From positions 11,761 through 75,760 of the forward strand of contig JACOYH010000004.1 of the NCBI GenBank assembly GCA_016181965.1: a stretch of 64,000 nt of DNA, given 5' to 3'. Positions 44,414 through 62,560 of the stretch are shown piece after piece (within the stretch, counting starts at the first letter, position 1; every line of letters starts with the position of its first letter). Source of the stretch: Candidatus Nealsonbacteria bacterium (GTDB lineage Bacteria > Patescibacteriota > Minisyncoccia > Minisyncoccales > MHMH01). The position numbers and the translations under genes were made by a program. The notes under the pieces were generated by a model. The model saw only the letters and a program-made list of their open reading frames with translations. It was not told the DNA's origin and did not search any database.

Positions 44414-44486
44414 GCCCCCATAACTCAATCGGCAGAGTAGCTGGCTCTTAACCAGTTTGTTCTAGGTTCGAATCCTAGTGGGGGCA
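44414..44486 (+). tRNA. tRNA-Lys (CTT)
   Basis: Acceptor gccccca/tgggggc, anticodon loop ctcttaa. Confidence 0.8.
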
Positions 44487-44527
44487 CTTGCTTCTTTTCT
44501 TACATAGGTTAGAATAAAAATAAAACA

Positions 44528-44791: not shown

Positions 44792-44802
44792 ATAACAAAA
44801 AT

Positions 44803-45309
44803 ATGACGTTAGCAAAACATAAAGACCAAAGAGTGGCTGTTTTGATTGATGTTCAAAATATGTATCACTCGGCCAAAAATATCTATCACTCAAAGGTCAA
44901 TTTTGCCAATATACTGGAAACGGCAATCAGCGACCGCAAACTCATCAGGGCTTTCGCTTATGTGGTTAAAACAAAAACTGGCGAAGAAAAGCCCTTTTTT
45001 GATGCCTTGACCAACCTCGGCATAGAAACGCGCGTCAGAGAGCTGCAAGAGTTTTACGGGGGCATGAAAAAAGCCGACTGGGATGTCGGCATTTCCATAG
45101 ACGCCGTGAAAACGGCCCCGGGCGTGGATGCGATTGTTTTGGTCTCGGGAGACGGCGACTTTATTCAGCTCGTGGAATATCTTAAAAATCAAGGCAAAAG
45201 AGCCGAGGTAATGGCTTTTGGAAAATCAACGTCTTCGCGATTAAAAGAAATCGCTGACGAATTTATTGACTTAGGCGCTACTCCGCAAAAATATCTATTG
45301 AAAAAATAA
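44803..45309 (+). CDS. NYN-domain (LabA-like) protein
   Basis: VAVLIDVQNMYHSAK...VLVSGDGDF motifs. Confidence 0.7.
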   Translation: MTLAKHKDQRVAVLIDVQNMYHSAKNIYHSKVNFANILETAISDRKLIRAFAYVVKTKTGEEKPFFDALTNLGIETRVRELQEFYGGMKKADWDVGISIDAVKTAPGVDAIVLVSGDGDFIQLVEYLKNQGKRAEVMAFGKSTSSRLKEIADEFIDLGATPQKYLLKK

Positions 45310-45312
45310 TAT

Positions 45313-47415
45313 ATGACGGGCGCGCATAAAACAGAAATAGGCGGCAAGGACCTTATCGTAGAGTTAAATACGCTTGCTAAAAGAGCCAACGGCAGTTGCT
45401 TGGTCAGATACGGAGATACGGTGGTTTTGGCCACAGCCGTCATGTCCAACTACGAAAGAGAGGGTATTGACTTTTTCCCCTTAACCGTGGAATACGAAGA
45501 AAAATTCTACGCGGCAGGCAAAATTTTGGGCTCAAGATTTATCCGCCGCGAAACCAAACCCTCTGACGAGGCCATCTTGACTGCCCGCTCAATCGACCGG
45601 GCCATAAGGCCGAGATTTCCAAAGCATCTGCGGCGCGAAATACAAGTCGTGGTCACTTGCCTTTCTTGGGACGGCGAAAACGACCCCGACACCATTGGAT
45701 TATTGGCCGCTTCCCTGGCTCTTTCAACTTCGGATATTCCTTGGATGGGTCCGATTTCAGCGGTCAGGGTAGGCAGGGATGGCAACGCTCTCGTGTTAAA
45801 TCCAACATACCTGCAAAGAGCCAAAAGCGACATAGACCTTTTCATAACCGGCATGGAATCGCCGGGGGACTTCCTTATTAATATGATTGAATTAGAAGGA
45901 GATGAAGTTGACGAAAATGCTATCGTCGAGGCCTATCGGTTTGCCAAGACACAACTGCAGTCCCTGATAACTTTTCAAAAAGAAATTGTTGGAAAATCGG
46001 GCGCAATAAAATTCGGCTTAGCCGCTCCCGCTCAAGACCCAGCATTAGACAATGAAATGAGGGAATTTTTGGGCAATAAGCTGGAAGAGTTGCTTTACGA
46101 CCAAAAGGCCAACAGCCGCAGAATGGAGTCAATTAATGATTTAAAAAGAGAGCTTATTTATTTTGTTGAAGGAAAATACCCGGGCATGGGAAAAGAAAAA
46201 TACGCGGACTCTTTTTTTGAAAAAGAACTCGATCTGACCATACACGAAAACATCATTAAAAAAGAAAGAAGACCCGACGGCAGAAAGCTCGATGAAATCA
46301 GGAAACTTGAGATTGAGGTCGGCGTTTTGCCCCGTACCCACGGTTCGGGTATTTTTACCCGCGGAGAAACCAAGGCGCTTTCTATTCTCACATTAGGCGC
46401 TCCCACTGACGTGCGGCTTATGGAAGGCATGGAAATCCGAGGCAAGAAAAGATTTATGCACCACTACAATTTTCCTCCCTACAGTTCGGGCGAAGTAAAG
46501 CCAATGCGAGGGCCGGGCAGAAGAGAAATAGGCCACGGCATGCTGGCAGAAAGAGCTATTTTCCCCCTTATCCCCAATATAGAAAATTTTCCTTATACTA
46601 TTAGAGCGGTTACTGAAGTCGTTGCTTCAAACGGCTCCACTTCTATGGCATCGGTATCAGCGGCCTGCTTGGCAATGATGGACGCGGGCGTGCCCATTAA
46701 AGCGCCGGCCGCTGGCATTGCCGTGGGCTTAATGAGCAATGACAAAGGGGAATACAAGCTGGTCGCCGATATTCAAGGTCCCGAAGACCACCACGGCGAC
46801 ATGGATTTTAAAGTGGCGGGCACCCGCAAAGGAGTGACAGCTATTCAGATGGACGTGAAAGTTGAGGGCATTAGTGGTATAATATTAGAAGAGGCCCTGC
46901 AGCTTGCAAAAAAATCCCGGGAAAAGATTTTGAAAGAAATTGAAAATGTCTTGCCAAGGCATCGGGAAAACCTATCGCCTTGGGCTCCCAGAATATACAC
47001 CCTGCAAATTAAACCGGATAAGATTCGCGAGGTCATCGGCCCGGGCGGAAAAATTATTAATGAAATAATCGAAAAGTGCGAGGTTTCCATTGACATTGAA
47101 GACGACGGGAAAATATTTGTTACCGCAGAGAAAGAAGAGGCAGCTAAAAAAGCCGTGGAATGGATTAATAATATAACAAGGGAGGTTGAGGTGGGGGAGA
47201 CGTTTCAAGGCAAGGTTAAGCGAATATTAGCTTTCGGGGCTTTTGTGGAAATACTGCCGGGGCAGGAAGGACTAGTGCACATATCGCAATTGGCTCCTTA
47301 TCGCGTAGAAAAAGTGGAAGATATCGTAAAAATCGGGGACATAGTGCCGGTTAAAGTGATCTCAATAGACGAACAGGGCAGAATAAATTTATCTATTAAA
47401 GAGACAAAAAAATAA
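45313..47415 (+). CDS. pnp: Polynucleotide phosphorylase
   Basis: Two RNase PH domains, KH and S1 domains. Confidence 0.95.
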   Translation: MTGAHKTEIGGKDLIVELNTLAKRANGSCLVRYGDTVVLATAVMSNYEREGIDFFPLTVEYEEKFYAAGKILGSRFIRRETKPSDEAILTARSIDRAIRPRFPKHLRREIQVVVTCLSWDGENDPDTIGLLAASLALSTSDIPWMGPISAVRVGRDGNALVLNPTYLQRAKSDIDLFITGMESPGDFLINMIELEGDEVDENAIVEAYRFAKTQLQSLITFQKEIVGKSGAIKFGLAAPAQDPALDNEMREFLGNKLEELLYDQKANSRRMESINDLKRELIYFVEGKYPGMGKEKYADSFFEKELDLTIHENIIKKERRPDGRKLDEIRKLEIEVGVLPRTHGSGIFTRGETKALSILTLGAPTDVRLMEGMEIRGKKRFMHHYNFPPYSSGEVKPMRGPGRREIGHGMLAERAIFPLIPNIENFPYTIRAVTEVVASNGSTSMASVSAACLAMMDAGVPIKAPAAGIAVGLMSNDKGEYKLVADIQGPEDHHGDMDFKVAGTRKGVTAIQMDVKVEGISGIILEEALQLAKKSREKILKEIENVLPRHRENLSPWAPRIYTLQIKPDKIREVIGPGGKIINEIIEKCEVSIDIEDDGKIFVTAEKEEAAKKAVEWINNITREVEVGETFQGKVKRILAFGAFVEILPGQEGLVHISQLAPYRVEKVEDIVKIGDIVPVKVISIDEQGRINLSIKETKK

Positions 47416-47429
47416 TCTAAATAATCTAA

Positions 47430-48632
47430 ATGCCCGAACCCGAGCAACAACCAAAAGACGAAAAACTTGAGTATTTAAAAAGAGATGAGATTAGAACTAT
47501 GGGCAAAGACGTTGGCGCCCTAAGGGAAGCAGAAGCGCAACGAGAAAGACAAAGGGTGGCAAAAATGCGCGTCGGGGAGGAAAGGAAACAGGAAAGCGCA
47601 AGGCAGGAGACCGCCGCTCAAGCTACTCAAGAGCGAAGCGAGGCCGCCAAAGCAGCCAGGCAAAAAGAAGAAGAGGTGGCAACGTTAAAAGAAGAATGGA
47701 CGGCCAGAGAAGAAGCGGCAAAAACAGAGGCCATAGAGAGGGCGCGGCAAAGAGAAGCGCGACTGGGCAAAGAAATGGAGAAAGTTCAAGGCCCGGAAGA
47801 ACAGGCCCGAAAGAGTTTTCTTGAAAGGGTAGAGGCAAAAGTAGAGGGTTTACCCGCCGAAGAGACAGCGCCCGAAAGGCCAAGAATTCCAGCCCCCGAA
47901 ATGCCTAAACCCACAACGCCTGCGCCGCCAAGACCACCAAAAATTCCGTCGCCTCCAGCTTTCGCAACTTTGCCTGTTGCCACAAAACCGACAGCCGCAG
48001 GACTACCTTGGACAAAAATTGCCATTTCTTTATCGGCTCTAGCGGTTTTAGGGGCTGTGGGAACTTTTTGGTACTGGTACTTTGTTGTCAAACCAGCGCC
48101 CGTTCAACCTCCTCCACCTCCATCAACCGAACAGCCAGAACAGCCGGTCAAGGAAGAGCCAATTATTTCAGCTCCGCAAATAACAGAAGCGCTGGTCGAG
48201 GCGGGCTATCGCGTACCAACGAGCCCCCGCACTATCACCACATTAATAATCCACAGTATTTATAATATTTTAGAGGGCGATTCATACAGCGTGAACGGGA
48301 TACTAGAAGAATACCGGCAATTAAACGTAGCCCACCACTACTTAATTGCCCGCGATGGCGCGGTTTACAGAGCGGTGGCAGAAGAGAATATCGCTTATCA
48401 CGCTGGCCCCAGTCGCAACGCCTCTTCAATAGGCATTGGTATTATTAATACAGGAACCGACACGCCTACTCAAGCCCAATATCAAGCGTTAGCGGGCTTA
48501 GTTAAACAACTTAAGGAAAAATACGCTATCTCCGACGAAAGTATTTTTCGGCGTCAGGACGTAATAGCCGACAGCCCCAACAACCCTGCCAATTTTGACT
48601 GGAATTATTTTAATTCGCTCATCGCTCCCTAA
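47430..48632 (+). CDS. Membrane-anchored N-acetylmuramoyl-L-alanine amidase (Amidase_2/PGRP domain) with charged coiled-coil N-terminus and Pro-rich linker
   Basis: Amidase_2 motifs HHYLIARDGAVY...IAYHAG...NFDW; central TM. Confidence 0.65.
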   Translation: MPEPEQQPKDEKLEYLKRDEIRTMGKDVGALREAEAQRERQRVAKMRVGEERKQESARQETAAQATQERSEAAKAARQKEEEVATLKEEWTAREEAAKTEAIERARQREARLGKEMEKVQGPEEQARKSFLERVEAKVEGLPAEETAPERPRIPAPEMPKPTTPAPPRPPKIPSPPAFATLPVATKPTAAGLPWTKIAISLSALAVLGAVGTFWYWYFVVKPAPVQPPPPPSTEQPEQPVKEEPIISAPQITEALVEAGYRVPTSPRTITTLIIHSIYNILEGDSYSVNGILEEYRQLNVAHHYLIARDGAVYRAVAEENIAYHAGPSRNASSIGIGIINTGTDTPTQAQYQALAGLVKQLKEKYAISDESIFRRQDVIADSPNNPANFDWNYFNSLIAP

Positions 48633-48644
48633 GGGCGGCCGTAA

Positions 48645-48709
48645 GAAGCCAGGCTTCCCGCGGGAAGCCTGGCTTCTCGGTCCCGGGTCCCGCGGGAAGC
48701 CGGGCTTCT
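48645..48709. repeat. REP-like palindrome AGAAGCCAGGCTTCCCGCGGGAAGCCTGGCTTCT plus adjacent half-copy
   Basis: Identical to the element at 50591-50624. Confidence 0.7.
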
Positions 48710-48761
48710 AACGCCTCATCTTAGATATTTATTGATTGTGGATTAGTTGTGGAAAACTCTG

Positions 48762-48945
48762 CTTGACAGGGTTTTTTGTTATGAGATAATACGGATAGTT
48801 CTTTCAGCTAGTACTCCGGCAAACGCCGAGCGCTGGCTCAGTAAGTAACCTAAGGCCATGGGCCTTTTGTTCAAAAGAGGGCGAAGCTCCAAAATCCGCT
48901 TAGGCGCATCGCGAGCTTGCTAGCCCTTTTTTTGTTTGCTAAAAT
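48762..48945 (+). ncRNA. Candidate structured RNA / leader: promoter (CTTGACAGGGTTTTT...TAATAC), about 140-nt GC-rich structured region, terminator-like hairpin with T7 run, upstream of the DksA/TraR-like gene
   Basis: No ORF; closing pairing gctagtact...gcttgctagccc followed by ttttttt; promoter shares 15 nt with the 545-559 promoter. Confidence 0.35.
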
Positions 48946-48960
48946 GAAACAATCAACTAT

Positions 48961-49332
48961 ATGAATCCAAAACAAATACAAGAGTTTAAGGAAAAATTAG
49001 AAAAAGAAAAAAACGCAGTTGAAGAACAATTGCAAACAATCGCCGAAAAAGATTCTCACCTCAAAGACGACTGGGACAGCAAATACCCCAGAATGAACAG
49101 TGAATTCGGGGGCTCGGCATTAGAAATCGGAGCTGACGAGGTTGAGGCATACGGCAATCGCCTGCCGGTTGAATATGCGTTAGAGTTAAAATTGAAAGAT
49201 ATTAATATAGCCCTGTCTAAAATAGCCACAGGCGGATATGGCAAATGCGAAAATTGCAAAAAAGATATAGATGATAACCGTCTTGAGGTTTATCCCGAAG
49301 CGCGTCTCTGTATGAACTGCCGCAAAAAGTAA
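48961..49332 (+). CDS. DksA/TraR-family C4 zinc-finger protein
   Basis: Coiled coil plus CENC...CMNC zinc finger at the C-terminus. Confidence 0.7.
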   Translation: MNPKQIQEFKEKLEKEKNAVEEQLQTIAEKDSHLKDDWDSKYPRMNSEFGGSALEIGADEVEAYGNRLPVEYALELKLKDINIALSKIATGGYGKCENCKKDIDDNRLEVYPEARLCMNCRKK

Positions 49333-49420
49333 CGCTAGAAAAGCTTATCTGCCATGTTGCTCGCGAAGTAGACCGCGACTCCCATCACTAACAGCCAAAT
49401 AAAAACAAACTCCGACATTT

Positions 49421-50521
49421 TTAGTATATATAGCCCTTAATTAACGGGTCGCCCATGCGCAGGGTTCGGTAGTTTGTCTTACCCCAGCCGATATAATTCA
49501 TTTCAGAGAAGATTATCTTATCTCCCTTGACCTGCTCAACATAGCCGACATGGCCGTAGATCTTGTCGCCCTCCAGTGATATGACTGCTCCCGCTTGGGG
49601 AATACAAAACCTGCCTACGCAAGTGGCATAACCATCCGCGGCCGCATTGGCTATCCAGTCGGTTGCGTTGCCCCACGATGGAATAGCTCTTTTTTGAGCA
49701 ACCCACCAGGTGCACTGCCCGTAAGGAAAATCGTGCGATTTACCGTAGAAATTATTAGTGGAAAGCCCCGAAGTAGCGCTTACTCCGGGCAAACTGACCG
49801 TGGAATACGAGGGCATTTGCCCACCCGGTATTATCAATATCTCTCCTTCGAAGATGTCGCCGTCTTCCTTTATATCGTTAAAAACGAGCAGGTCGGCAAC
49901 GTCTGCTTTATATTTTTTAGCCAAAGCGTCAGCTGTATCTCCCGCCTGCACTTGGTGCATAATGCCGGAAGCAGGTAAAATAAGCAGTTTTTGCCCGGGC
50001 TGAATAATGCCGCTGCCTATATTATTGGCCCAAATAACCGTATCAATAGAAACGCCGAAGTTCTGGGCAATGCCCCACAAACTGTCTCCATTTTTTACGG
50101 TGTATTCAACGATTTCTCTTCTCGTAACCTTATAGTCGGCTCCATCGCCTAAGGCCCCGAGCACTTGAGGGGTTACGGCCATTGGCGGCGATATGGCGGC
50201 CAAGCTATTACTTTCTATTATAGTCAGTTCTGGCGATTCTTTTATTTTTTCAAAGGGCACAAGAAAAGTCCCTTGCGTTTCAACAGGGGCTTGAGCTGAA
50301 AAAGCGTAATTGACTTGAGCGGTTGATGGGGCGGTAGTAGCTATCACAGCGAACAAAGCCACGGCAAGGAATCCCAAATAAAACAAAGGGTCGCGCTTGG
50401 ACCCCTTTAAGTACTCTTTAACCGCATTTAAGCCCTGTTCTAGAAAATAAATTTTGCTTGACCCTGTCAACTTTCTTAGTCCGCTAAGCATCCGCTGGGC
50501 CAAAACAGACAAACTTTCCAT
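49421..50521 (-). CDS. Membrane-anchored peptidoglycan hydrolase: two LysM domains plus CHAP domain
   Basis: LysM YTVKNGDSLWGIA... and HQVQAGDTADALA...; CHAP Cys (YGQCTWWV) and His (IYGHVGYV). Confidence 0.8.
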   Translation of the reverse strand: MESLSVLAQRMLSGLRKLTGSSKIYFLEQGLNAVKEYLKGSKRDPLFYLGFLAVALFAVIATTAPSTAQVNYAFSAQAPVETQGTFLVPFEKIKESPELTIIESNSLAAISPPMAVTPQVLGALGDGADYKVTRREIVEYTVKNGDSLWGIAQNFGVSIDTVIWANNIGSGIIQPGQKLLILPASGIMHQVQAGDTADALAKKYKADVADLLVFNDIKEDGDIFEGEILIIPGGQMPSYSTVSLPGVSATSGLSTNNFYGKSHDFPYGQCTWWVAQKRAIPSWGNATDWIANAAADGYATCVGRFCIPQAGAVISLEGDKIYGHVGYVEQVKGDKIIFSEMNYIGWGKTNYRTLRMGDPLIKGYIY

Positions 50522-50590
50522 ATATCAGGTATGCCTTAAGGATATCATCGGGCAGACACATGGTCAAGCCACTTTTCCACAGCGGGAACT

Positions 50591-50624
50591 AGAAGCCAGG
50601 CTTCCCGCGGGAAGCCTGGCTTCT
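50591..50624. repeat. REP-like palindrome AGAAGCCAGGCTTCCCGCGGGAAGCCTGGCTTCT
   Basis: Perfect 34-bp palindrome; copy of 48645-48678. Confidence 0.7.
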
Positions 50625-50663
50625 TTTACCCCGGTCGTTCACTGTTCGTGGTACAATTGATGA

Positions 50664-51512
50664 ATGGATCTGACTTCAAAAAAGACCATCAAAGAACTAC
50701 TCGCAAGGCAAGGCGCTATGCCATCCAAGCGCTTGGGCCAAAATTTTTTAATTGATAAAGGCGCTGTCAGACAAATAATTGAAGCAGCCGATGTCGACAG
50801 CCAAGATACGGTTTTAGAGATTGGCCCGGGGCTTGGCGTGATTACTCAAGAACTTGCGAAAAAAGTAAAACAAGTTATTGCCGTGGAAAAAGACAAAAAG
50901 ATGGTTGATTTGCTGAAAGAAACATTAAAAGATTATAAGAATATTGAAATAATCACTGGCGATATTAGGGAATCGGATTTTCTAAAAAGGAAATCGGATT
51001 TCCTAAAATATAAAGTCGTCGGCAATCTCCCGTTTTACCTTACGGCTCCGGTTATCCGCCAATTCCTCGAGCTGGTTGACACCAGGTGTCAACCAGCTCA
51101 AATGACGTTGGTGGTCCAGAAAGAGGTAGGGCAGAGAATATGCCAAAAGCCGCCGCGGATGAACCTATTGGCCGTCTCGGTGCAAATTTACGCAGAACCG
51201 CAGATCATTGCTTATATTCCAAAAACATCTTTCTGGCCCCAACCAAAAGTGGACGCGGCCATTGTCAGCATCATCCCAACCTCAAGCCAAAACTTGCGGA
51301 CGACGGGCGTCCGCGAGTTCTTCAAAATAGTGAAAGCGGGGTTTTCCCAACCGAGGAAACAGCTGGTAAATAATTTTTCAGGACAGCTTAAAATAGATAA
51401 GAATAAAATCAGCGCCTGGCTACATCAAAACGACATTAATCCAAAACGCCGAGCCGAAACACTTACGATAGGCGACTGGATTAACTTGGCTAAAAGTTTT
51501 AGAATAGGATAA
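50664..51512 (+). CDS. rsmA: 16S rRNA (adenine1518/1519-N6)-dimethyltransferase
   Basis: LGQNFLID, SAM-binding VLEIGPGLG, N(L/I)PY motif. Confidence 0.9.
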   Translation: MDLTSKKTIKELLARQGAMPSKRLGQNFLIDKGAVRQIIEAADVDSQDTVLEIGPGLGVITQELAKKVKQVIAVEKDKKMVDLLKETLKDYKNIEIITGDIRESDFLKRKSDFLKYKVVGNLPFYLTAPVIRQFLELVDTRCQPAQMTLVVQKEVGQRICQKPPRMNLLAVSVQIYAEPQIIAYIPKTSFWPQPKVDAAIVSIIPTSSQNLRTTGVREFFKIVKAGFSQPRKQLVNNFSGQLKIDKNKISAWLHQNDINPKRRAETLTIGDWINLAKSFRIG

Positions 51513-52576
51513 TGAAAGGGTTTTTTCTTAACATCCTGCCGATATTGTTGATCTTTGGCGGTCTTTTATTAATGAGCTCTATCTTTGCGGAAGACCCCGG
51601 ACCCATTACTTGCGGCGAAGTGCCACCCGACCCGGGCGAGGACTACACCAATACATGGAACGAATACCGTTGCGAAAGCAACGCTTGCGGAGGAGACGCC
51701 CTAACCAGATCCGCTTCCCAGCATTTCTTTACGTATTATCAAAGAATATATGATGTTAATGGCTGTCAGATCGGCTGGGGAGGAGTAGAGAGCACATCAG
51801 GCGACAACCCGCCCATTGAATACGGTTCGCCATCTGTTTATCAACAGGCCAACCAGTATCAAAAATGCGCAGGAAGCACCGGTTGGCAAAGAACCGCTGT
51901 TTCCGTGCAGTGCCAAGGAGAGTGCTACCCAGCTCCCACCCCAAAGCCGTTAAACGCCATTCCCAAGGCGCCGTATAACGTCCCGGATGGGAGCGCCTAT
52001 AAACTGCCTATTAATTTTTCTTGGGAGGATCTTAACAGAGTTATAGCTCCCTCGTGCCAAGTAGCTAAATATCAATTTCAAATCCCGGGCGCTGGCGCGA
52101 TAGTCCCACCGCCGCCAATTATCCCTCCGCCGCCTCCTCCCGGGCCCCCGCCTCCGCCTCCACCTCCACCTTCACCGCCGCCTCCTACTGGCTGGTGTTC
52201 GGTACCCACATTGCGAACCTATTTCGGAACTAACGTTTCAAACGCATCGCGCATCTGCAACACCGAAAGCGGTGGCAATCCTAACGTTATCGCCTCCGAT
52301 GGACTTGGTGGTTATGACGTCGGACTCTTCCAAATTAATACTACCGCCCATCCAGGACTTACTGTAGATTATTTAAAAGTTCCGGAAAACAACATCAGAG
52401 AGGCCGTAAATATCAGCAACGGAGGGACTAATTGGGGCGCTTGGTCGGTGGCGTATACTTATACGTGTCTTTGGAACACATACATTCCTTTATTGGGAAT
52501 AATTCCGGGGTGCGTTCCGTGGCATCAATCGCAAGAGCCGGCGCCCGGGATTTATAATTGCCAGTGCAGGCCCTAA
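51512..52576 (+). CDS. Secreted Cys-rich protein with poly-Pro linker and C-terminal SLT-like lytic transglycosylase domain (VirB1-like)
   Basis: Signal peptide; PPPPIIPPPPPPGPPPPPPPPPSPPPP; catalytic-region pattern ESGGNPNVIASDGLGGYDVGLFQIN. Confidence 0.55.
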   Translation: MKGFFLNILPILLIFGGLLLMSSIFAEDPGPITCGEVPPDPGEDYTNTWNEYRCESNACGGDALTRSASQHFFTYYQRIYDVNGCQIGWGGVESTSGDNPPIEYGSPSVYQQANQYQKCAGSTGWQRTAVSVQCQGECYPAPTPKPLNAIPKAPYNVPDGSAYKLPINFSWEDLNRVIAPSCQVAKYQFQIPGAGAIVPPPPIIPPPPPPGPPPPPPPPPSPPPPTGWCSVPTLRTYFGTNVSNASRICNTESGGNPNVIASDGLGGYDVGLFQINTTAHPGLTVDYLKVPENNIREAVNISNGGTNWGAWSVAYTYTCLWNTYIPLLGIIPGCVPWHQSQEPAPGIYNCQCRP

Positions 52577-52580
52577 AATT

Positions 52581-54440
52581 ATGCGCTTTACCTATTACCC
52601 GATTTTAATATCTCTCACGATTGTTGGAACTTTTTTATCAATGGGGGCATCGGCCCAAAGCATTGTTGATTTGCCGGGCGACCAGCTGCAGCTCCAGACG
52701 ACGTCAACCCCCCAATACCTCTTTCGTTGCGCTCTCTCAACCGACAGGTCTTACCAGTGGCAAGTCCGCGCCTGCGCCGGCGACACCTGCAGCAGTTGGG
52801 CAACCGGTCAGCAATTCACGACTAGTCATGCTCCGGAGGTTGCCTCGCCTTATGATGCCGATTGGCAAAGTAAAGAAAAGATGAAAAACGCTGCTGCCGT
52901 CTTGGACTGGTGCCCTGCGGAAGGCGCGGTTTCTTATTTGCTCGAACTTTATCAAAAAACAGGCGCTGCTTTTAATAAAGTGGTTTTGCCGGAACGATTC
53001 ATAGCGCCCAACACCATATACGACGACGATCGCGGCTGGCAGGAAATAAAAAAAGCCACATCTTACGGCTGGCAAGTTACCGCCTGCCCGGGTATCAATA
53101 CGCCAAAAGAAGGGTGCGGGCCTTTTAGTCAGTTCTGGGAATTTGATACTGGAGTAAAGCTTAGGTTACCAACGAACCTTATTCCGCCAGACGGCTCGGT
53201 TGTCAACCTTTCCACTTCGCTTTCGTGGCTGGGCGACAGGTACGCGGCCGGCTATTTATTGCATATTCAAGGCACAGTTATTAATCAGGAAATTCCAGTA
53301 GTGAGATCTACGGATTTTCCTTTGAATAAAATATGGAAGGATTGGCTCGCCCTTGACGCTCCTTATAACTGGCGGGTCGCTTCTTGCGAGGGGAGCGCCA
53401 CAAGCACAACCGGGCTGGTTTGCGAAGAAGAGACAACCGGTCAGGTGCAATGGAGCGCGGTAAACTCTTTGCGCACGACCGGAGCTCCGCCAACGAATGT
53501 AAGGTTTGAGCCAACTAACGCGCAAGGCCAGATTGCTATTCCCCTAACTATTTCATGGGACGACATGCCCGGCGCCGCTTCTTACAGGATTGAAGTGCGC
53601 GGTGTAAAATACGCAGTCCTGCGCGAGCCCAAGTTAACGCTATATTTTGAACCGCCATTTTTACAGCAAGGCCAATCGTATATAGCCCTCATAAGAACCT
53701 GCGCCGATGAGGACGGACTGGTTTGCGGATTATCGACCGGCGCGTCGTTTACCGTGGCGCCTCTTGAGCCGCCCGCCATTACGGCAGAGAATTTATTTAT
53801 CCCATCTTTTGGAGTCAAAACAAACGAGGTCTTTGGCGCCAGCGCTTACCAATATCAACTGCGCTATGAATCAGCCAATCCGGAAGAAACAGACGCGTGC
53901 AAGGCCTCTGTGGGTTCGGTTACGGAAACAACAATTGTCGGCGGCGACGGACCCATCTCTGTGCGATGCGCCGGCCAATATTCTTTGCAAGGACGCGGCT
54001 GTATTGAAAATACCTGCGCGGAGCCGCTGGGCTGGGGCCAGTGGAGCGGCCCGCTCTCTCTGACAATTCAAGAACAACGAGGAGCAACCGGCCTTATCCC
54101 TTGCGGCAGGGGAGCAAATAATCCCTCCACGCCTTGGGATGAACGCGAAAGTTGCGGCGTCAAACACATCTTTTTATTAATTAAAATTATTCTTGATTTC
54201 CTGATGTTCCGGCTTGCCCCTCTTGCCTTAGCCGCGCTCGCCTTGTATAGCGGAGTCATTTTTTACTTTGCTTTGCCTATGGGCGTTACCACGCCGGTTG
54301 TAAAAGTTAAATCGCTCTGGAGGGCGGCAGGCATCGGCTTGCTGATAATATTTTTTGCTTGGCTTATAATCAACACTTTCTTGGGCTTTGTCGGTTTCAA
54401 TATCGGAGTGTTCGGCAACTGGTACGAAATTGGCTCTTGA
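52581..54440 (+). CDS. Large exported protein: about five repeated roughly 95-aa Y.W.V..C modules fused to a C-terminal T4SS pilin-like domain
   Basis: Signal peptide; repeats YQWQVRACAGDTC, YGWQVTACPG, YNWRVASCEG, YRIEVRG...IRTCADEDGLVCG, YQYQLRY; C-terminus LIPCGRG...C...two hydrophobic helices, homologous to ORF 43940. Confidence 0.5.
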   Translation: MRFTYYPILISLTIVGTFLSMGASAQSIVDLPGDQLQLQTTSTPQYLFRCALSTDRSYQWQVRACAGDTCSSWATGQQFTTSHAPEVASPYDADWQSKEKMKNAAAVLDWCPAEGAVSYLLELYQKTGAAFNKVVLPERFIAPNTIYDDDRGWQEIKKATSYGWQVTACPGINTPKEGCGPFSQFWEFDTGVKLRLPTNLIPPDGSVVNLSTSLSWLGDRYAAGYLLHIQGTVINQEIPVVRSTDFPLNKIWKDWLALDAPYNWRVASCEGSATSTTGLVCEEETTGQVQWSAVNSLRTTGAPPTNVRFEPTNAQGQIAIPLTISWDDMPGAASYRIEVRGVKYAVLREPKLTLYFEPPFLQQGQSYIALIRTCADEDGLVCGLSTGASFTVAPLEPPAITAENLFIPSFGVKTNEVFGASAYQYQLRYESANPEETDACKASVGSVTETTIVGGDGPISVRCAGQYSLQGRGCIENTCAEPLGWGQWSGPLSLTIQEQRGATGLIPCGRGANNPSTPWDERESCGVKHIFLLIKIILDFLMFRLAPLALAALALYSGVIFYFALPMGVTTPVVKVKSLWRAAGIGLLIIFFAWLIINTFLGFVGFNIGVFGNWYEIGS

Positions 54441-54493
54441 CAAGACAAAGTAAAAACGCTATACATCGTTAACCAAAAGCACGGGAGGGAGAG

Positions 54494-55117
54494 ATGCTTA
54501 AAAACTTAATATGGCCAGTAGGGGCCTTATTGCTGGTGGCGGGTATATTCGTTTACGCACTATCGTCAAACAAGGTGCCTCCGCCAAATCCAGCTGTAGC
54601 CGATGAGGTATTGCCGACAGCGACAGCAACAGCGACGGCAACGCCCGAAACAAAAACTAACTCTATTATCCCGATGGTGACCGTAACGCCGGTTCCGGCA
54701 AAAACCCGCGAGTATGTTTACAACGCAGTTGAATACTTAATTGCAAGTAGGTCACGTAGCTTTATCTGGCTTAAAATAATGCTTAAGGAGCGCGGATACA
54801 ATATACAGGACGAAGAAATTCAAAAATTTCGGGAACAGCACGGCGTAGACCCCGGCGACTCTATAGTAATAAGAGGAAAAATAGTCGGCAGATCAGATAT
54901 GGCAAACTACGCAGGAGTAAGAATTGAATCGCCGGAACATCTTCTATCCTGCATGGGTAGCCGCAGTAGTACTGTTGTCGGCGTCCTTCCCCAGTGGGCG
55001 TCTGACGCCTTACAATCGGTCAAGGCGGGCAAAGAGGTAGTCCTCACCTTGCGAGGCACGGCAACCAGTGAAAGTTACAAGATAACAGATTGCCAACCCG
55101 TGATCGATGGGAAATAA
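54494..55117 (+). CDS. Bitopic membrane protein in the T4SS-like cluster (VirB8-like topology; speculative)
   Basis: N-terminal TM followed by a roughly 180-aa exo-domain. Confidence 0.3.
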   Translation: MLKNLIWPVGALLLVAGIFVYALSSNKVPPPNPAVADEVLPTATATATATPETKTNSIIPMVTVTPVPAKTREYVYNAVEYLIASRSRSFIWLKIMLKERGYNIQDEEIQKFREQHGVDPGDSIVIRGKIVGRSDMANYAGVRIESPEHLLSCMGSRSSTVVGVLPQWASDALQSVKAGKEVVLTLRGTATSESYKITDCQPVIDGK

Positions 55118-55168
55118 CGCTTAAAGGCCCGGTTTTCAACAGCCGGGTCTTTTAATGTTGTTTTTATT

Positions 55169-57673
55169 TTGTGTTATAATAACCTAATGAATGAAGAATC
55201 GCGCCAGATAAAACAAAAACGCTATTGCAATAAAATGCCTCATTTATTTTTGTTGGCATTTTTTGTTTTTATTTTCATTGCTTGGCCGGTTTTTACTTTT
55301 GCAGCTCCGTGGGATTTTATCACGGGACCGTTCACGGCAGTTACCGATACCTTAAACGCCCTTAAAAATATAATTATAAATTTAGGTATAATAATATTGC
55401 TCCTTTTCACGGGTGTTCCCATACTTTTTGCCATGGCCGCCGCAATCGCCTACGGGGCAATGTTTTTACTTGCCGCGCTGGGCAGCGCAGTGTTCTTTCT
55501 TGTTGACCACATTATTGAGCAAACCCTTAGCGTCCCCGTAGTGCCCGGTCGGGGCATAACTATTATCACTGACGGATGGGCTTTATCGCGCGATATTGCC
55601 AGTATGTTCTTTATTGTTATTCTCGCCTTTATCGGTCTTGCCACGATTTTGGGCATGCAAACATATCAAGTTAAAAAATTATTGCCCGCTCTTTTATTAA
55701 TGGCGGTTCTTTTAAATTTCAGCGCTCTGCCGGTTGGTTTTATAGTGGATATGTCAAATCTGATGTCTATCGGCTTTATAAGGGCAATGAATATTGGTTT
55801 TGCTAATAATTTAGTAACAGACGCGCTTAATCAAACATTAAATGATTTAAAAACTAATATATTGGCTATCGGAAATAATATTACCAGCCAGAATGCCATA
55901 GAGTTTTTCTTTGGTACATTCCTCGAGCCGGTGCTCACAGCCGCAGCAAAAGCAGTTTTCTATTTCGCTTTCATATTAGCGCTTCTGGCGATTAGTTTTC
56001 TTTTTATTATTAGAATCGGCATACTTTGGATGTTATCAATCCTGGCGCCGCTTGCTTTTGCTTCTTATGTTTTACCGGCTACAAGAAAGTTCTGGAGCCA
56101 ATGGTGGCAAAATCTTCTACAATGGTCATTAATGGCTCTTCCTATGTCGTTCTTTCTCTATTTAGCATTTAAAATCAACAGTATACCAAGCGAGTTGAAT
56201 TTCTCTGGCGGCGGGTGGTTCGGTACCATTTTAGCCGGCTTTATTCAGCCGCTCTTGATTCTGCTTTTCCTTTTTGTTGGATTTGTTACCAGTATGACTT
56301 TCGTGCCCGGGGTGGCGCGGGGCATGGTAATGAAAGGGGGCAAGTTTATGACCGGCACGGTAGCTGTAGGCGCCGGCGCGCTTGCCGCTAAAAGATTGGC
56401 GCCGCTGGCTCAAAAATGGGGCGCGGGACTAAAAGGGCCGCAAAAAACGGAGGCCGAAATAGCAAAAATGGGCCGCGTAGAAAAATTCGGCTGGGGCGTT
56501 CGCCAGAGATATGGCGCCCCATTAGAAATGGCTGGTCGGGAAGCCGCCAGCAGAATCGAAAGAAAAGAAACCGCTGACGTGGAAAAACAAAAAGAACAGT
56601 TCAAGAAAATGGGCGCGGGAGAAATTCTCAACCGTTTTAAGACGAGCGTCAAACCTTCTTCGCGAGCCGCGGCCTTATGGGCATTATCAGAAAGAGACCC
56701 CGCTAAATTTGCTGAATACATAAAAGGCAACCAAATCAAAGGAGCAGATGTGACCAAAGCCGGGGCGCTTCTTGGCAAAAGAGGGCATTTGATGTTTGGC
56801 GCCAATAATTATACAGACGCCTTAGCCGCGGCTATGTACCCAACAGAATGGCAAGCCGCGCAGGCTTTAATCAAGCAAGGCAAGACAAGAAGAGGTAACG
56901 CAAAGCTTAAAGAAATTGCACGAAGATTTGCCGGCGCGGTTAAAGATCCAACCCAAATGTCGGCAAGCGCGTTTAAGAGCTCGGCTTTTATGGGAGCCGC
57001 GGTTGATACGTGGAGCGGCGATAAAATCGGCCGGGCGGCCACGCATTTTGGCAGAGAAGTGGCGGACGCATTTCAAAAGGAGATTGATAAAAAAGGCAAG
57101 GATATTTTCAAAGATAATGGCCGCTTGGCTCTTTGGCTTACCGGCGGAGCCGCCACCAACGCCGGACTTCATTTACCACCGGAAATTAAAGACATGACCC
57201 AAAAAGAGGTTAAAAATGAAATGATCAAGGCCAGAATAAGCTCGGAAAAAAGAATGGATAAGCAAACTGCTCTTTTACAGCAAATCTTCAAAAACAATCC
57301 TCAACTGCTTATGAGGGACTACCACCGCCCCGGAACCACCGAGGAAATGAAAAAGGCCATTGCCGGCGCTATCCAAAACCTTGGCCGCACCCTCCCCACC
57401 AAAGAAGAGGTGAACTCCCGGATTGGCAAAACAGAACAAACCATCATCAAAAGAACGCAGGATGAAGTAAGAGCTATTCAAGACCGCAACCGCCACGAAG
57501 AGACATATCAGAAAGCAGGCGGTCTGCCGACTGGACCAGCATTTCAGACGTGGCAAGCGGGGCAACGAGATGTCGCCGAAAGATTAGACAAGATTCGTGG
57601 CGATATTAAGAAAGCCGAACAAAGCCAAGCCGGCTCTTTGGCAAGATTATGGGAAAAGAGAAAGGGCAGCTAA
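55169..57673 (+). CDS. Polytopic membrane protein with long C-terminal hydrophilic domain (VirB6/TrbL-like)
   Basis: More than 8 TM segments over about 400 aa, then a roughly 430-aa Lys/Ala-rich soluble domain; cluster context. Confidence 0.5.
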   Translation: MCYNNLMNEESRQIKQKRYCNKMPHLFLLAFFVFIFIAWPVFTFAAPWDFITGPFTAVTDTLNALKNIIINLGIIILLLFTGVPILFAMAAAIAYGAMFLLAALGSAVFFLVDHIIEQTLSVPVVPGRGITIITDGWALSRDIASMFFIVILAFIGLATILGMQTYQVKKLLPALLLMAVLLNFSALPVGFIVDMSNLMSIGFIRAMNIGFANNLVTDALNQTLNDLKTNILAIGNNITSQNAIEFFFGTFLEPVLTAAAKAVFYFAFILALLAISFLFIIRIGILWMLSILAPLAFASYVLPATRKFWSQWWQNLLQWSLMALPMSFFLYLAFKINSIPSELNFSGGGWFGTILAGFIQPLLILLFLFVGFVTSMTFVPGVARGMVMKGGKFMTGTVAVGAGALAAKRLAPLAQKWGAGLKGPQKTEAEIAKMGRVEKFGWGVRQRYGAPLEMAGREAASRIERKETADVEKQKEQFKKMGAGEILNRFKTSVKPSSRAAALWALSERDPAKFAEYIKGNQIKGADVTKAGALLGKRGHLMFGANNYTDALAAAMYPTEWQAAQALIKQGKTRRGNAKLKEIARRFAGAVKDPTQMSASAFKSSAFMGAAVDTWSGDKIGRAATHFGREVADAFQKEIDKKGKDIFKDNGRLALWLTGGAATNAGLHLPPEIKDMTQKEVKNEMIKARISSEKRMDKQTALLQQIFKNNPQLLMRDYHRPGTTEEMKKAIAGAIQNLGRTLPTKEEVNSRIGKTEQTIIKRTQDEVRAIQDRNRHEETYQKAGGLPTGPAFQTWQAGQRDVAERLDKIRGDIKKAEQSQAGSLARLWEKRKGS

Positions 57674-57704
57674 TATTTCAGCTGCCCCCTAGGGGAGAAT
57701 GTGC

Positions 57705-57998
57705 TTAAACGATCGCCGAGACCCCATCTACGGTCTCAATGGCCTGCTCCCGATTAACATCTTCGGCTTGTAGCGCAGCGGCGACGCGATGTCGCGCCTC
57801 CGACGCAGAAGTGCATGTCTCGATGATCTTTATATATCGAGTGGCTCTCTTCTCAGACGCCCTGATATACTGATCACCGGATGCGGCCTCTTGCGCCAGC
57901 TTCCTTGCTTCCTTTTCGAGCTGACGCAATTCTTTCTCGCGCGCTTCATCTCTCGCCTTCAACGAGTTCGGATCGACCTTCCTAAAGAGCCCAAACAT
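57705..57998 (-). CDS. GC-rich small coiled-coil protein, antisense orientation inside the T4SS-like cluster
   Basis: About 60 percent GC; perfect TTGACA-N16-TATAAT promoter and AAGGAGG RBS in 58000-58064 (minus strand). Confidence 0.5.
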   Translation of the reverse strand: MFGLFRKVDPNSLKARDEAREKELRQLEKEARKLAQEAASGDQYIRASEKRATRYIKIIETCTSASEARHRVAAALQAEDVNREQAIETVDGVSAIV

Positions 57999-58064
57999 CC
58001 TATTCCTCCTTGATATTATTTACTACCTATATTATACACAATTTAATTAATTTGTCAATCCCTT

Positions 58065-58469
58065 ATGCCTATAAATATTACCCCGGAACAATATAAAGAA
58101 CTATTCAATAAACTGCCTAAAGAAACACAGGATTTAGCGCTTTCCGAAAAAACGGCTATGAGCGTGTTTGACTCCTGCATAGCTAACGATGTGGATGTTG
58201 ATAAAATTTCGGAAGTTGGCAGATATGCCGACTATGTTCTGGTCGGCGCGATAAAGGAAGACGATTTGGCTGATGCTTTGGAAAGAGAGGTTGGCTTGGA
58301 AAAAGAATCAGCCAAAAAAATAGCCGAGGATATTGCGGCAGATGTTTTCAGTAAAATAGGGGAGAAGCCAACTGCGGCGGCTGTGTCTATGCCAAGCGAA
58401 GACGAAATTGACGAAGAGATGGAAGAAAAACCTCGCCGCAAAGACACCTACCGCGAGACCGTCGAGTAA
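58065..58469 (+). CDS. Hypothetical acidic protein (T4SS-like cluster)
   Basis: ORF only. Confidence 0.4.
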   Translation: MPINITPEQYKELFNKLPKETQDLALSEKTAMSVFDSCIANDVDVDKISEVGRYADYVLVGAIKEDDLADALEREVGLEKESAKKIAEDIAADVFSKIGEKPTAAAVSMPSEDEIDEEMEEKPRRKDTYRETVE

Positions 58470-58475
58470 AAAGTT

Positions 58476-58844
58476 ATGTCTGACACAGCCACGCCAAACG
58501 CATTTTCGCCCGACTTTCTGCTTTTTGCCTTTCCGCTGGCCGCTTTTTTAGATGTTTTCGGTTTTATTTCCATATTCATCAGTTTTGGCATTTTGGGGTT
58601 TATTGTCAGTTTACTTCTGGGCATTCCGCTTGTTATTTGGATGGTGACAAAAGAAAACGACATAGCGGCCGCAAAAGAGCGTGTCAGGGAGTTGCGGAAA
58701 CCCGGGGCTGGCGCCACAAAAGCGGAAGGAAAGGTGGCGAAAAAAGTGTTGGGCAAGGGCCTGCGCAAACTTATTTTAGGAAGCGTTTTGGTCTTTTTCC
58801 CTTATTGGACTTGGTCGGCATTGTCCGTATTAAGAAAGGGATGA
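58476..58844 (+). CDS. Small membrane protein (T4SS-like cluster)
   Basis: 2-3 TM segments. Confidence 0.4.
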   Translation: MSDTATPNAFSPDFLLFAFPLAAFLDVFGFISIFISFGILGFIVSLLLGIPLVIWMVTKENDIAAAKERVRELRKPGAGATKAEGKVAKKVLGKGLRKLILGSVLVFFPYWTWSALSVLRKG

Positions 58845-58858
58845 TATAATAATTCAAT

Positions 58859-59239
58859 ATGAAAACAAAACAAATATTTTTCTTTATATTGATACTCGCG
58901 CTTGTGGCGCCTCAAACTGTTTTCGGGATTGCTTTGAACTTACAATATCCTGTCCCCCCCGGAGCGCCAAACATCAACGATGGCAACCAGCAAACGTTCG
59001 GAGACTTTGCTCTCTATATATACAACTTTATCGTCTGGATCTCCGGTCTCGCCGCCTTTGTGATGATTATCTGGAATGGCTTTTTGTGGCTCACCTCGGC
59101 CGGCAACCCGGGGCAAATCAGGCAAGCCACCGAGGGGTTGAGAAACGCCGCCCTGGGTTTGCTTGTTGTTTTGGCGTCATTTATTATTCTCCAAACAATC
59201 AATCCGCAGTTTATCGCGCCAAGATTGCCCACTTTTTAG
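58859..59239 (+). CDS. T4SS pilin-like protein (VirB2/TrbC-like)
   Basis: Signal peptide, two hydrophobic helices separated by a SAGNPGQ turn; similar to ORF 43940. Confidence 0.5.
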   Translation: MKTKQIFFFILILALVAPQTVFGIALNLQYPVPPGAPNINDGNQQTFGDFALYIYNFIVWISGLAAFVMIIWNGFLWLTSAGNPGQIRQATEGLRNAALGLLVVLASFIILQTINPQFIAPRLPTF

Positions 59240-59251
59240 GCAAGACATTTT

Positions 59252-59659
59252 ATGGATCAGTTTACCGTTCCACAATTCATCGAGCACAAGGCAAAAATTG
59301 TCGGGCCGCTGACTTTCCAGCAGTTTATTTTTGTCGGCATTGCCGTGGCCATTTCTTTTTTTCTTTATTTCGCCGTTCCTTTAATGTTTTTTGTGGCCGG
59401 CTCACTGGTTCTTGTGGGGACAGCGCTGGGCTTGGCCTTTGGCAGCGCCGGGGGCAGGTCGTTGCCTTTAGTGCTGAAAAATTTTTCCGCCTTTTTTTTC
59501 GCCCCAAAGCTCTATCTTTGGAAAAAGAAAGTCGGGCCGCCGCCAAAATTAATAAAAGAAGCCGCGCCCGTGCCAACCGCAGTTAGGGAAACGCCCGTGC
59601 CGACTATCGTGGGTAAAAGCCATCTTAAGAATTTATCAACCCGCATAGAAACAAAATAA
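59252..59659 (+). CDS. VirB3-like small membrane protein (2 TM) immediately upstream of virB4
   Basis: Topology and position; 2-nt gap to the next ORF. Confidence 0.4.
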   Translation: MDQFTVPQFIEHKAKIVGPLTFQQFIFVGIAVAISFFLYFAVPLMFFVAGSLVLVGTALGLAFGSAGGRSLPLVLKNFSAFFFAPKLYLWKKKVGPPPKLIKEAAPVPTAVRETPVPTIVGKSHLKNLSTRIETK

Positions 59660-59660
59660 A

Positions 59661-60290
59661 ATGCCAAGCACGCAGGACTTTTTAGAAATAGATCAAATCA
59701 GAGAGGGGATAGTTATTCTTAAAAACAAGGCGCTAAGAGGAGTAATGATGGTCTCCTCTATTAATTTTGCCTTGAAATCAGAGGAGGAGCAGTCGGCTAT
59801 TATTGCGCAGTTCCAGGGCTTTTTGAATTCTCTGGATTTTTCCGTGCAAATTGTCGTCCAGTCAAGGCGCCTTAATATCACCGGCTATTTGGATAAATTA
59901 GAGCAATTGGCAAACAGGCAAACCAACGAGCTATTAAAAGTCCAGGTACAGGGATACCATAAATTTATAAGCGAATTAGTGTCAGCTGGCACTATTATGT
60001 CTAAAACGTTTTTTGTAGTTGTTCCCTTTACTCTCTTTGAGTCGGGAGCTACAGCCGCCCAATTAATAAAAGGAAAGGGCACTCCCATTTTGACCGAGGA
60101 ACGTTTTCAAATGATAAAAAGCCAATTATGGCAAAGAATGGAGTTTGTCGCAATCGGCTTAAGAAGGTGCAGCTTACAGGCAGTACCGCTGACCACTCCG
60201 GAGCTAATCGAACTATTTTGGTCGTTGCACCATCCAAAACAAGCCGAAGTCGGCTATTACCCGGAAGTCCCTCCGGAATTGTCAAAATAA
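59661..60290 (+). CDS. virB4: VirB4-family ATPase, N-terminal domain (ORF 1 of a split gene)
   Basis: EGIVILKNKALRGVMMVSSINFALKSEEEQ pattern typical of Gram-positive-type VirB4 (TrsE/PrgJ/Orf16) N-termini. Confidence 0.55.
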   Translation: MPSTQDFLEIDQIREGIVILKNKALRGVMMVSSINFALKSEEEQSAIIAQFQGFLNSLDFSVQIVVQSRRLNITGYLDKLEQLANRQTNELLKVQVQGYHKFISELVSAGTIMSKTFFVVVPFTLFESGATAAQLIKGKGTPILTEERFQMIKSQLWQRMEFVAIGLRRCSLQAVPLTTPELIELFWSLHHPKQAEVGYYPEVPPELSK

Positions 60291-60291
60291 T

Positions 60292-62094: not shown

Positions 62095-62098
62095 ATCA

Positions 62099-62560
62099 TT
62101 AGGCCTGTCTGATAATAATGCGTCTTTGGGCGCCCTCGCCCAAACTTTCGCCGATAATATCGCTTCTTTCTGCCAGCGCCATATGAACTATTCTCCTTTC
62201 GTATGCCGACATGGGCATGAGTTCTTTTTCTTTTTTAGTTAGGACAACATCGTCGGCAGCCAATCGAGCCATCTCCTTCAGATATTCGGCTTTTTTTTGT
62301 TTGTAGTCGTTGATGTCCATATCAACGAAAAACGTCTCTTGAGCTCCCAGTTGTTTTCTTATCATTAATTTAATTAGATTTTGCACTTCAAATAGCGTCT
62401 GCCCGCGTTCCCCGATTAAAAGCTGGGCATCTTCGGTCTTAACTTTAACCGGTATTATTGAATCGCTTAAGTCCTTAACTTCAACTTCAACCGGCAACCC
62501 GGTTTTCTTAAAGAATGCATCTATTATTTCTTTAATTTTGGGCAAATCAGCTGCGTTCAT
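62099..62560 (-). CDS. jag: Jag/SpoIIIJ-associated protein (KH + R3H RNA-binding)
   Basis: R3H-like ERRIVHMAL motif; downstream of yidC. Confidence 0.75.
   Translation of the reverse strand: MNAADLPKIKEIIDAFFKKTGLPVEVEVKDLSDSIIPVKVKTEDAQLLIGERGQTLFEVQNLIKLMIRKQLGAQETFFVDMDINDYKQKKAEYLKEMARLAADDVVLTKKEKELMPMSAYERRIVHMALAERSDIIGESLGEGAQRRIIIRQA

Follow-up and report, generated by a model that had tools for sequence, protein, structure and literature searches.

In the ultra-small genome of a member of the Patescibacteria (Candidate Phyla Radiation, CPR), the first gene of a chromosomal type IV secretion system (T4SS) cluster codes for a protein in which a VirB2-like pilin module follows a large array of predicted fibronectin type III (FN3)-like domains. 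The gene lies at positions 52581..54440 (+ strand) of the 64,000-nucleotide stretch of contig JACOYH010000004.1 that was analyzed (hereafter, the window). It starts with an ATG, its open reading frame (ORF) was confirmed in the window, and its 619-amino acid (aa) product is identical to the NCBI entry 'hypothetical protein HYT21_02000 [Candidatus Nealsonbacteria bacterium]', which derives from a metagenome-assembled genome (MAG). From the N- to the C-terminus, the protein consists of a putative signal peptide, a half-module (M1), the FN3-like modules M2-M5 and a VirB2-like two-helix pilin module. An initial annotation of this DNA had proposed that a pilin domain is fused to an ectodomain of several repeats; our analysis bears this out and places the fusion within a T4SS cluster. 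We propose, with a probability of roughly 0.55, that the protein belongs to a surface-displayed stalk of the Patescibacteria T4SS, namely that it is a VirB2-like pilin module that carries FN3 domains on its mature N-terminus and has a wall hydrolase associated with it.

The C-terminal region (54072..54437, + strand; aa 498-619) comprises a variable linker and a module with the signature GLIPCGR...C..H, two helices and a basic loop. AlphaFold2 placed helix 1 at aa 527-567 and helix 2 at aa 571-603 (41 and 33 residues) in the full-length model, and this was repeated in a domain-only model. The inter-helix loop contains three K/R residues (K575, K577 and R581) and no D/E, and its flanks are slightly acidic. 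A hairpin of two hydrophobic helices with a short basic loop is a feature of the pilin family. The conserved positions of the module are P507, C508, G509, C525, H529, G586 and W614, and no other part of the protein is conserved as well (49-55% identity among homologs).

The initial annotation had considered the C-terminus homologous to two stand-alone pilins encoded in the window, and this could be established for one of them. With the short paralogous pilin at 43940..44341 (+ strand), in which a signal peptide is directly followed by AGLVPCGG, BLASTP (ORF 43922/43940..44341) gave 37% identity over 120 columns (E 4e-16), with the GLxPCG motif, the second Cys, the His and the C-terminal W aligned. 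A profile of 14 orthologous C-terminal domains matched the same protein with an hhalign probability of 99% (E 2e-18), so that it is the nearest in-window relative of the fused module. The similarity to the second short T4SS_pilin gene (58859..59239, + strand) was marginal: BLASTP gave E 0.012 over 19 aa, hmmsearch E 0.0096, and hhalign a probability of 31% (E 5e-4), yet the alignment was in register across both helices. The link between the fusion module and this second pilin is their common membership of PF18895 (T4SS_pilin). Thirteen of the 14 orthologous C-terminal domains, scanned alone, matched PF18895 (best E 2.2e-6), and the homolog P0021 reached 27.8 bits vs a cut-off of 26.6. Judged by sequence, the C-terminus is clearly a genuine VirB2-like/T4SS_pilin-family module, with membership of the window copy established indirectly, via the orthologs and ORF 43940.

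Several negative results weigh against our proposal. The sole exception among the 14 domains was the window copy itself, which had no PF18895 match at E < 0.1. Pfam and NCBIfam scans recognized no part of the 619-aa protein, and gave nothing usable with its C-terminal 119 aa scanned alone, so that the pilin assignment is only indirect. Sequence searches of the PDB, run with the pilin-domain profile as well as the two short pilins, gave hits at chance level only and no match to a solved VirB2/TraA. When the pilin-domain model was compared with the PDB by Foldseek all E values were above 3, as expected because the model is a plain helical hairpin. The lack of a direct Pfam match, the marginal similarity to 58859..59239 and the lack of a structural match to a solved pilin would all suit an explanation in which the C-terminus has only generic transmembrane (TM) hydrophobicity and belongs to an unrelated membrane-anchored surface protein that merely adjoins T4SS genes. 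This explanation is disfavoured, and we regard it as very improbable. The resemblance is not one of generic hydrophobicity, because non-hydrophobic landmarks (GLxPCG, the second Cys, the His and the C-terminal G..W) are conserved, the Cys and Gly positions being found on alignment with ORF 43940, and because 13 of 14 domains match PF18895, whereas other membrane families matched at most 2 of the 14. The hhalign match to the short pilin and the conserved synteny with T4SS genes also argue against it.

The two short pilins are themselves better recognized. The protein encoded at 43940..44341 matched PF18895 with E 1.1e-7, which passes the cut-off, and TrbC/VirB2 (PF04956) over the full profile with E 6e-6 (26.8 bits vs a cut-off of 27.9, which is narrowly missed). 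That encoded at 58859..59239, directly upstream of the PrgI/VirB3-like gene, matched PF18895 with E 2e-11 and the NCBIfam Mbov_0395 pilin-like family with E 1.4e-6, under the cut-off of the latter. A tblastn search of plasmids with the short pilin gave no match. The 43940..44341 gene sits 8 kb from the cluster, directly upstream of rpsO (44528..44791, ribosomal protein S15), and in the P0016 contig a weak T4SS_pilin gene was also observed upstream of S15, so the separate, S15-adjacent location of the short pilin seems to be conserved.

Pilins are small proteins, and in this respect the fusion departs from the family, since its mature N-terminus is lengthened by a large array of conserved modules: the signal peptide and the pilin module are ∼470 aa of FN3-like sequence apart. 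The motif [YF].[WALK].[VIAG]..C recurs at aa 58, 162, 262, 367 and 467, and all five modules are interrelated, with hhalign probabilities of 91-98% (E 8e-7 to 2e-13) for pairs of module sub-alignments. No module resembled the pilin domain in hhalign. The five related repeats with a Y.W.V..C core that had been initially described could thus be confirmed, with a period of ∼100-105 aa, but the first is only the C-terminal half of a module. This half of M1 (52659..52838, + strand; aa 27-86; core YQWQVRAC) aligns only with the C-terminal 26-32 columns of the other modules, and was modeled with low to moderate confidence (pLDDT block means 41-79). It is followed by M2 (52839..53150, + strand; aa 87-190; core YGWQVTAC), M3 (53151..53480, + strand; aa 191-300; core YNWRVASC), M4 (53481..53768, + strand; aa 301-396; core YIALIRTC), which is the best conserved module (46% mean pairwise identity), and M5 (53769..54071, + strand; aa 397-497; core YSLQGRGC).

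The AlphaFold2 model, computed from a 13-sequence alignment (mean pLDDT 77.8), showed tandem beta-sandwiches, with pLDDT > 90 for modules 3-5. The nearest PDB structures found by Foldseek were FN3 arrays (the gp130 ectodomain and fibronectin; E ∼1e-13), as would be expected of tandem ∼100-aa beta-sandwiches of FN3 topology. In relatives, matches to Pfam fn3 and Ig_Rha78A_N were observed, and in the window protein there were none. From the model we are confident that the ectodomain is predicted to be an FN3-like beta-sandwich array of ∼4.5 modules and ∼480 residues. Of the 16 Cys residues, 14 are kept in at least 12 of 13 homologs, a pattern consistent with one disulfide per module and one before helix 1.

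The missing first half of module 1 (strands A-B-C) is carried by the gene upstream, a point that the initial annotation had overlooked: the unit spans two genes, and 52581..54440 is the 3′ part of a split unit. The upstream partner gene (51512..52576, + strand) has its stop codon 4 nt before the ATG of the fusion gene, and its 354-aa product consists of a signal peptide, a Cys-rich region, the half FN3 M1, a Pro-rich linker and an SLT_3 domain. Longer homologs have a Cys-rich region at the N-terminus and module 1 in full, and the unsplit homolog P0004 aligns colinearly, over its aa 3-205, with aa 1-192 of the upstream ORF (E 5e-18). A total of 36 representatives contain, directly adjoining each other in a single protein, a part resembling the upstream ORF and a part resembling aa 27-200 of the 619-aa protein. 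P0054 is an example, with the two parts at aa 1-202 and aa 201-402 of its polypeptide, and in loci L005 and L007 both are covered by one ORF of 835-855 aa. In the window, strands C and C′ of M1 are separated by, in this order, the Pro-rich linker, the SLT_3 domain, a stop codon, 4 nt and a second ATG, with which another signal peptide begins.

The linker (52100..52192, + strand; aa 197-227 of the upstream gene) is seen in the translation, and similar Pro-rich linkers precede M23 in P0031 and in the upstream gene of L012. The SLT_3 lysozyme-like (lytic-transglycosylase-type) domain (52235..52447, + strand; aa 242-312) matched PF18896 with E 2e-12 (47.8 bits vs a cut-off of 27) and SLT (PF01464) with 20.5 bits vs 21.3. 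A lysozyme-like domain encoded in a T4SS cluster is a VirB1-like feature, and the upstream partner gene alone would be VirB1-like on this ground. The relative P0002 (locus L012), 68% identical, has the same split and the same N-terminal region (41% identity, E 3e-47), and its partner gene (570..1703) carries a Peptidase_M23 domain where the window has SLT_3. The contig of P0003 (L003) has the SLT_3 version (2..559), 69% identical. Between the SLT_3 and fusion-pilin genes of L003 there is an extra 160-aa gene with an N-terminal TM segment (584..1066), with no window counterpart. In the unsplit proteins P0097, P0031 and P0161, M23 is inserted in-frame inside module 1 at the same position. Among the long representatives scanned against Pfam (n = 62), M23 was found in 5, Peptidase_C39_2 in 2 and PKD in 4; SLT_3 was found in none of the 164 collected proteins. 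Since M23 and SLT_3 appear at one site of M1 across relatives, the distal module is a recurrent insertion site for wall-degrading domains. Comparison of the relatives shows, at the level of domain matches, that muralytic domains are swapped as cassettes at this one site inside an FN3 module, and in the lineage of the window the hydrolase insertion became a separate, tightly linked gene.

The fusion is not confined to this genome. The pilin-domain profile was used in a HMMER scan of 1.84 billion representative proteins, and 3,515 representatives (at 50% identity) were obtained at E <= 1e-3, 896 at E <= 1e-10 and 174 at E <= 1e-30. Among the matches listed, 122 of 148 new representatives had at least 400 aa (median 790, maximum 1,668), and the pilin domain was at the extreme C-terminus in all listed long representatives. 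Five modules was the commonest count (89 of 143 complete proteins, by hidden Markov model counting), and between family members the modules correspond one to one as orthologs. Some members are genuinely short: P0041, P0102 and P0135 have just a signal peptide and the pilin; P0039, P0119 and P0152 have one module in addition. A further candidate, P0017 (202 aa, one module plus pilin), was rejected as a true short form; a 476-aa gene ahead of it runs 4 nt into it (L004 2..1432 and 1429..2037), and P0017 probably results from a frameshift or mis-assembly of a full-length gene. Only 2 proteins were obtained in a word-indexed homolog search that used just the C-terminal domain, one homolog is named 'pilin' by NCBI, and a scan of species-representative genomes with a 5-sequence full-length alignment gave 7 loci. 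These loci are labelled Nealsonbacteria, Parcubacteria, Patescibacteria or Saccharibacteria, with one exception, a contig binned as Gammaproteobacteria. The exception, L006 (CAZMTM010000065.1, 4,967 bp), has a typical fusion-pilin gene in a MAG labelled 'uncultured Gammaproteobacteria bacterium', and is probably a mis-binned Patescibacteria contig. An assembly or gene-calling artefact could be ruled out, since the same layout is seen in over 120 independent representatives at 50% identity. The fusion therefore represents a large family of orthologs, in which the layout of five modules is close to fixed. The suggestion that it is an unusual or new architecture has to be modified accordingly: it is widespread, as the 174 representatives at the strictest threshold indicate, and it is undescribed in the Patescibacteria T4SS literature searched.

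The N-terminus of the fusion protein (52581..52658, + strand; aa 1-26, MRFTYYPILISLTIVGTFLSMGASAQ) has the appearance of a Sec signal peptide, with MR, a 19-residue hydrophobic stretch and ASAQ↓S, an assignment made from sequence features only. The 619-aa protein is without a lipobox, a type IV prepilin motif or an LPXTG-like motif. Neither the class III signal G↓F(T/S)L(I/L)E with an N-terminal helix, typical of type IV pilins (the hydrophobic helices are here C-terminal), nor the C-terminal LPXTG sorting signal of sortase pilins was found. A type IV pilin, a sortase pilin and a lipoprotein were ruled out by the absence of these motifs. The charge pattern of the hairpin would fit an N-out/C-out topology, which is also that of the VirB2/TraA propilins.

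In the short members of the family only 1-12 residues separate the end of the signal peptide from GLVPCG, which makes the FN3 array of the fusion an insert placed between signal peptide and mature pilin. This arrangement raises the question of internal processing, which had been presumed in the initial annotation. A precursor cleaved just before GLIPCG would yield a short pilin of the usual kind, with the FN3 protein secreted as a free product, and a cut there would leave a canonical pilin like the mature short paralogs. RP4 TrbC and Agrobacterium VirB2 do undergo extra processing. However, a conserved site before the pilin domain was sought in the homologs and none was visible: in the homolog alignment the linker before GLIPCG (GL[IV]PCG in the family) varies in sequence and length, with no conserved motif and no hydrophobic stretch for signal peptidase I, and no peptidase was recognized among the genes of the cluster. 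Internal processing is unsupported for these reasons. Furthermore, there would be no need to keep five specific modules in cis with the pilin if the product were to be discarded or released. We consider cleavage unlikely.

In all related contigs reaching that far, the fusion gene lies near the replication origin, between ksgA (50664 in the window) and a cluster of VirB6-like, VirB3-like and VirB4 genes, and it is single-copy and syntenic. PrgI/VirB3-like and VirB4-like genes are found 5-6 kb downstream of it, and their order is kept in relatives. The conserved downstream neighbour (54494..55117, + strand) codes for 207 aa with an N-terminal hydrophobic segment and has no significant Pfam match; a gene of 176-297 aa directly follows the fusion gene in every related locus examined. 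The window copy has a Thr-Ala repeat (TATATATATP), and its ortholog in L001 matches tRNA_anti-like, an OB-fold domain. Next is a large unannotated protein of 834 aa (55169..57673, + strand) with no Pfam match. Its slot is occupied by a 590-aa TrbL_3 (VirB6-like) gene in the P0016 contig, and by unannotated genes of 854-906 aa in L001, L003 and L004. By position, it is probably a very divergent VirB6-like platform.

Further downstream are two small membrane proteins (58065 and 58476), the short pilin described above, the PrgI-family (VirB3-like) gene (59252..59659, + strand; PF12666, E 4.5e-6), a gene for a 209-aa protein (59661) that is TraC-like in orthologous loci, the VirB4-like ATPase gene (60292..62094, + strand; P-loop_TraG E 3e-25, AAA_10 E 5e-14), and khpB, yidC and rnpA (62099-63598, minus strand). 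The relatives (31-63% identity) have the order ksgA, fusion gene, a gene of ∼200-290 aa, a large VirB6-like gene, small membrane proteins with a short pilin, PrgI, TraC-like, VirB4 and khpB/yidC/rnpA/dnaA, with dnaA seen after rnpA in one contig. Two more wall hydrolase genes are present just upstream of the cluster, at 47430..48632 (+ strand; Amidase_2) and 49421..50521 (- strand; LysM x2 + CHAP); at the second position L001 and the P0016 contig have LysM with Peptidase_M23. Among the ORFs scanned in 44000..64000, around the VirB4-like gene, no VirD4-like coupling protein or relaxase was recognized, which agrees with the published description of a non-conjugative T4SS in Patescibacteria. The published system is origin-proximal, relaxase-less, and located near ksgA, rnpA and dnaA, and the gene order of the window matches it.

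Taken with the preferred reading of a surface-displayed stalk, these data suggest the following sequence of events. The protein would be exported by Sec and its N-terminal signal peptide, recognized from the features given above, removed. The FN3 modules, whose fold is predicted, would then fold outside the membrane, stabilized by disulfides that the conserved Cys pairs point to. The C-terminal hairpin would insert in the membrane with both ends out and the basic loop in, as its hydrophobicity and its +3, acid-free loop suggest, in the same orientation as VirB2/TraA propilins. Synteny and homology suggest that the VirB4/VirB6-like machine would handle the pilin module together with the short pilins of 43940..44341 and 58859..59239. 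The fusion protein may be a low-copy subunit that sits either at the outer end of a pilus-like or stalk-like assembly or at the base of it, with its approximately five FN3 domains projecting from the cell. A peptidoglycan hydrolase would thereby be placed at the distal end of the stalk, as an in-frame M23 domain in some relatives and, in the window, through the product of the translationally adjacent SLT_3 gene. The latter may dock by completing FN3 module 1, because it carries the complementary half of that module. Such a structure would contact and locally digest a cell wall, possibly that of a host.

Further points count against this proposal. The literature searched has yet to observe a pilus for the Patescibacteria T4SS, of which it speaks only as a 'potential', and the hydrolase may act, like VirB1, on the wall of the bacterium itself. 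The near-fixed count of five modules and their one-to-one correspondence resemble a structural ruler more than a variable adhesin. A fixed module number with one-to-one orthology argues for a structural element of defined length, and so a non-polymerizing, envelope-spanning scaffold stays a serious explanation and the main rival. Here the hairpin would anchor the protein in the membrane or dock it on the VirB6-like platform, the stalk would span the cell's own wall and S-layer in place of the missing VirB8/VirB10-type parts, and the hydrolase would open the bacterium's own peptidoglycan in a VirB1-like manner so that the machine can be assembled. Besides the module count and orthology, the single-copy and syntenic state of the gene is consistent with this scaffold, as are the published rarity of VirB8 homologs and occurrence of VirB1 homologs with M23 or LysM in Patescibacteria, and the other wall hydrolases encoded beside the cluster. 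However, a single TM helix would suffice as an anchor, whereas the strongest conservation in the protein falls on the pilin module, which is also closely related to a stand-alone pilin, and this fits co-assembly better than plain anchoring. We regard the scaffold as possible, though distinctly less probable than a surface-displayed stalk.

A stronger version of the stalk proposal, which we hold tentatively and rate slightly below the scaffold, is that the FN3 pilin with its swappable hydrolase cassette is the missing component with which the essential T4SS of Patescibacteria contacts the host and penetrates its wall. In this case the pilin would double as the tip, replacing VirB5 or adhesins, and the split forms would recruit the hydrolase in trans through completion of the half FN3 domain. 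A tip or adhesin role, which the initial annotation had raised, may follow from the architecture.

The fusion shares features with several known systems. With VirB2/TrbC/TraA pilins (PF04956, PF18895) it has in common the hairpin of two hydrophobic helices, the short basic loop, the signal peptide and the adjoining VirB3-like and VirB4 genes. Known mature pilins of this kind, however, have 70-120 aa directly after the signal peptide, whereas here ∼480 aa of FN3-like sequence (up to ∼1,500 in relatives) are interposed; the fusion also has an extra Cys-x16-Cys-x3-His before helix 1, lacks a match to a solved pilin, and comes from a monoderm host. Modular type IV pilins, such as Streptococcus sanguinis PilB and PilC, and tip minor pilins likewise combine a functional or adhesive part with a pilin module through which the subunit can enter a filament. 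In PilB and PilC the extra module is C-terminal, whereas in the T4SS fusion it is N-terminal; the pilin fold and assembly machine are unrelated, and the prepilin-peptidase motif is absent from the fusion. VirB5 tip proteins and PrgB adhesins of Gram-positive T4SSs resemble it as proposed surface or tip elements contacting the target cell, but the fusion has no Pfam match and hence none to VirB5- or PrgB-type adhesin families, differs in fold, and is anchored by a pilin module instead of LPXTG. Finally, the VirB1, PrgK and TraG (pIP501) hydrolases resemble the partner, with its SLT-type domain (M23 or C39-like in relatives) and its location in a T4SS cluster, but here the hydrolase is inserted into, or split from, an FN3 module of a pilin fusion, and is neither free nor membrane-anchored.

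The closest published comparison is with the Patescibacteria themselves. Short VirB2-like pilins and tandem arrays of them were described by Wang et al. 2023 (PMC10633639) and Quinonero-Coronel et al. 2025 (PMC12102498), in the same phylum, with the same pilin family and with an origin-proximal T4SS near ksgA, rnpA and dnaA; one publication on this T4SS detected no adhesins. Unlike the proteins described there, the one analyzed here has an FN3 fusion, a five-module layout and a hydrolase cassette, none of which these two papers mention. The census criteria used in them (i-Evalue < 0.001 and profile coverage > 50%) would miss the window protein, because it has no PF18895 match at E < 0.1. FN3-fused or hydrolase-bearing pilins are not described in the literature searched, the coverage of which was partial, so that an earlier description elsewhere is possible. 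What appears to be new is the FN3 extension and the hydrolase cassette, the short VirB2-like pilins and arrays having already been published.

The T4SS of Patescibacteria is found phylum-wide, lacks a coupling protein and relaxase, is essential in the single, cultured species tested, and has no established function; no adhesin or host-contact component of it has been identified in the literature searched. A single-copy T4SS gene that joins a pilin to a five-domain stalk with recurrent distal hydrolases provides a concrete candidate for the host-contact component. It also shows that profile-based censuses of 'VirB2-like pilins' overlook the FN3-fused class, and it carries over to T4SS pilins the modular concept known from type IV pili. 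If the wall-penetration proposal is true, the fusion would be the first modular T4SS pilin and would offer a mechanism by which epibionts breach the host cell wall. The FN3-stalk pilin may be how Patescibacteria reach or breach the cell wall of their host.

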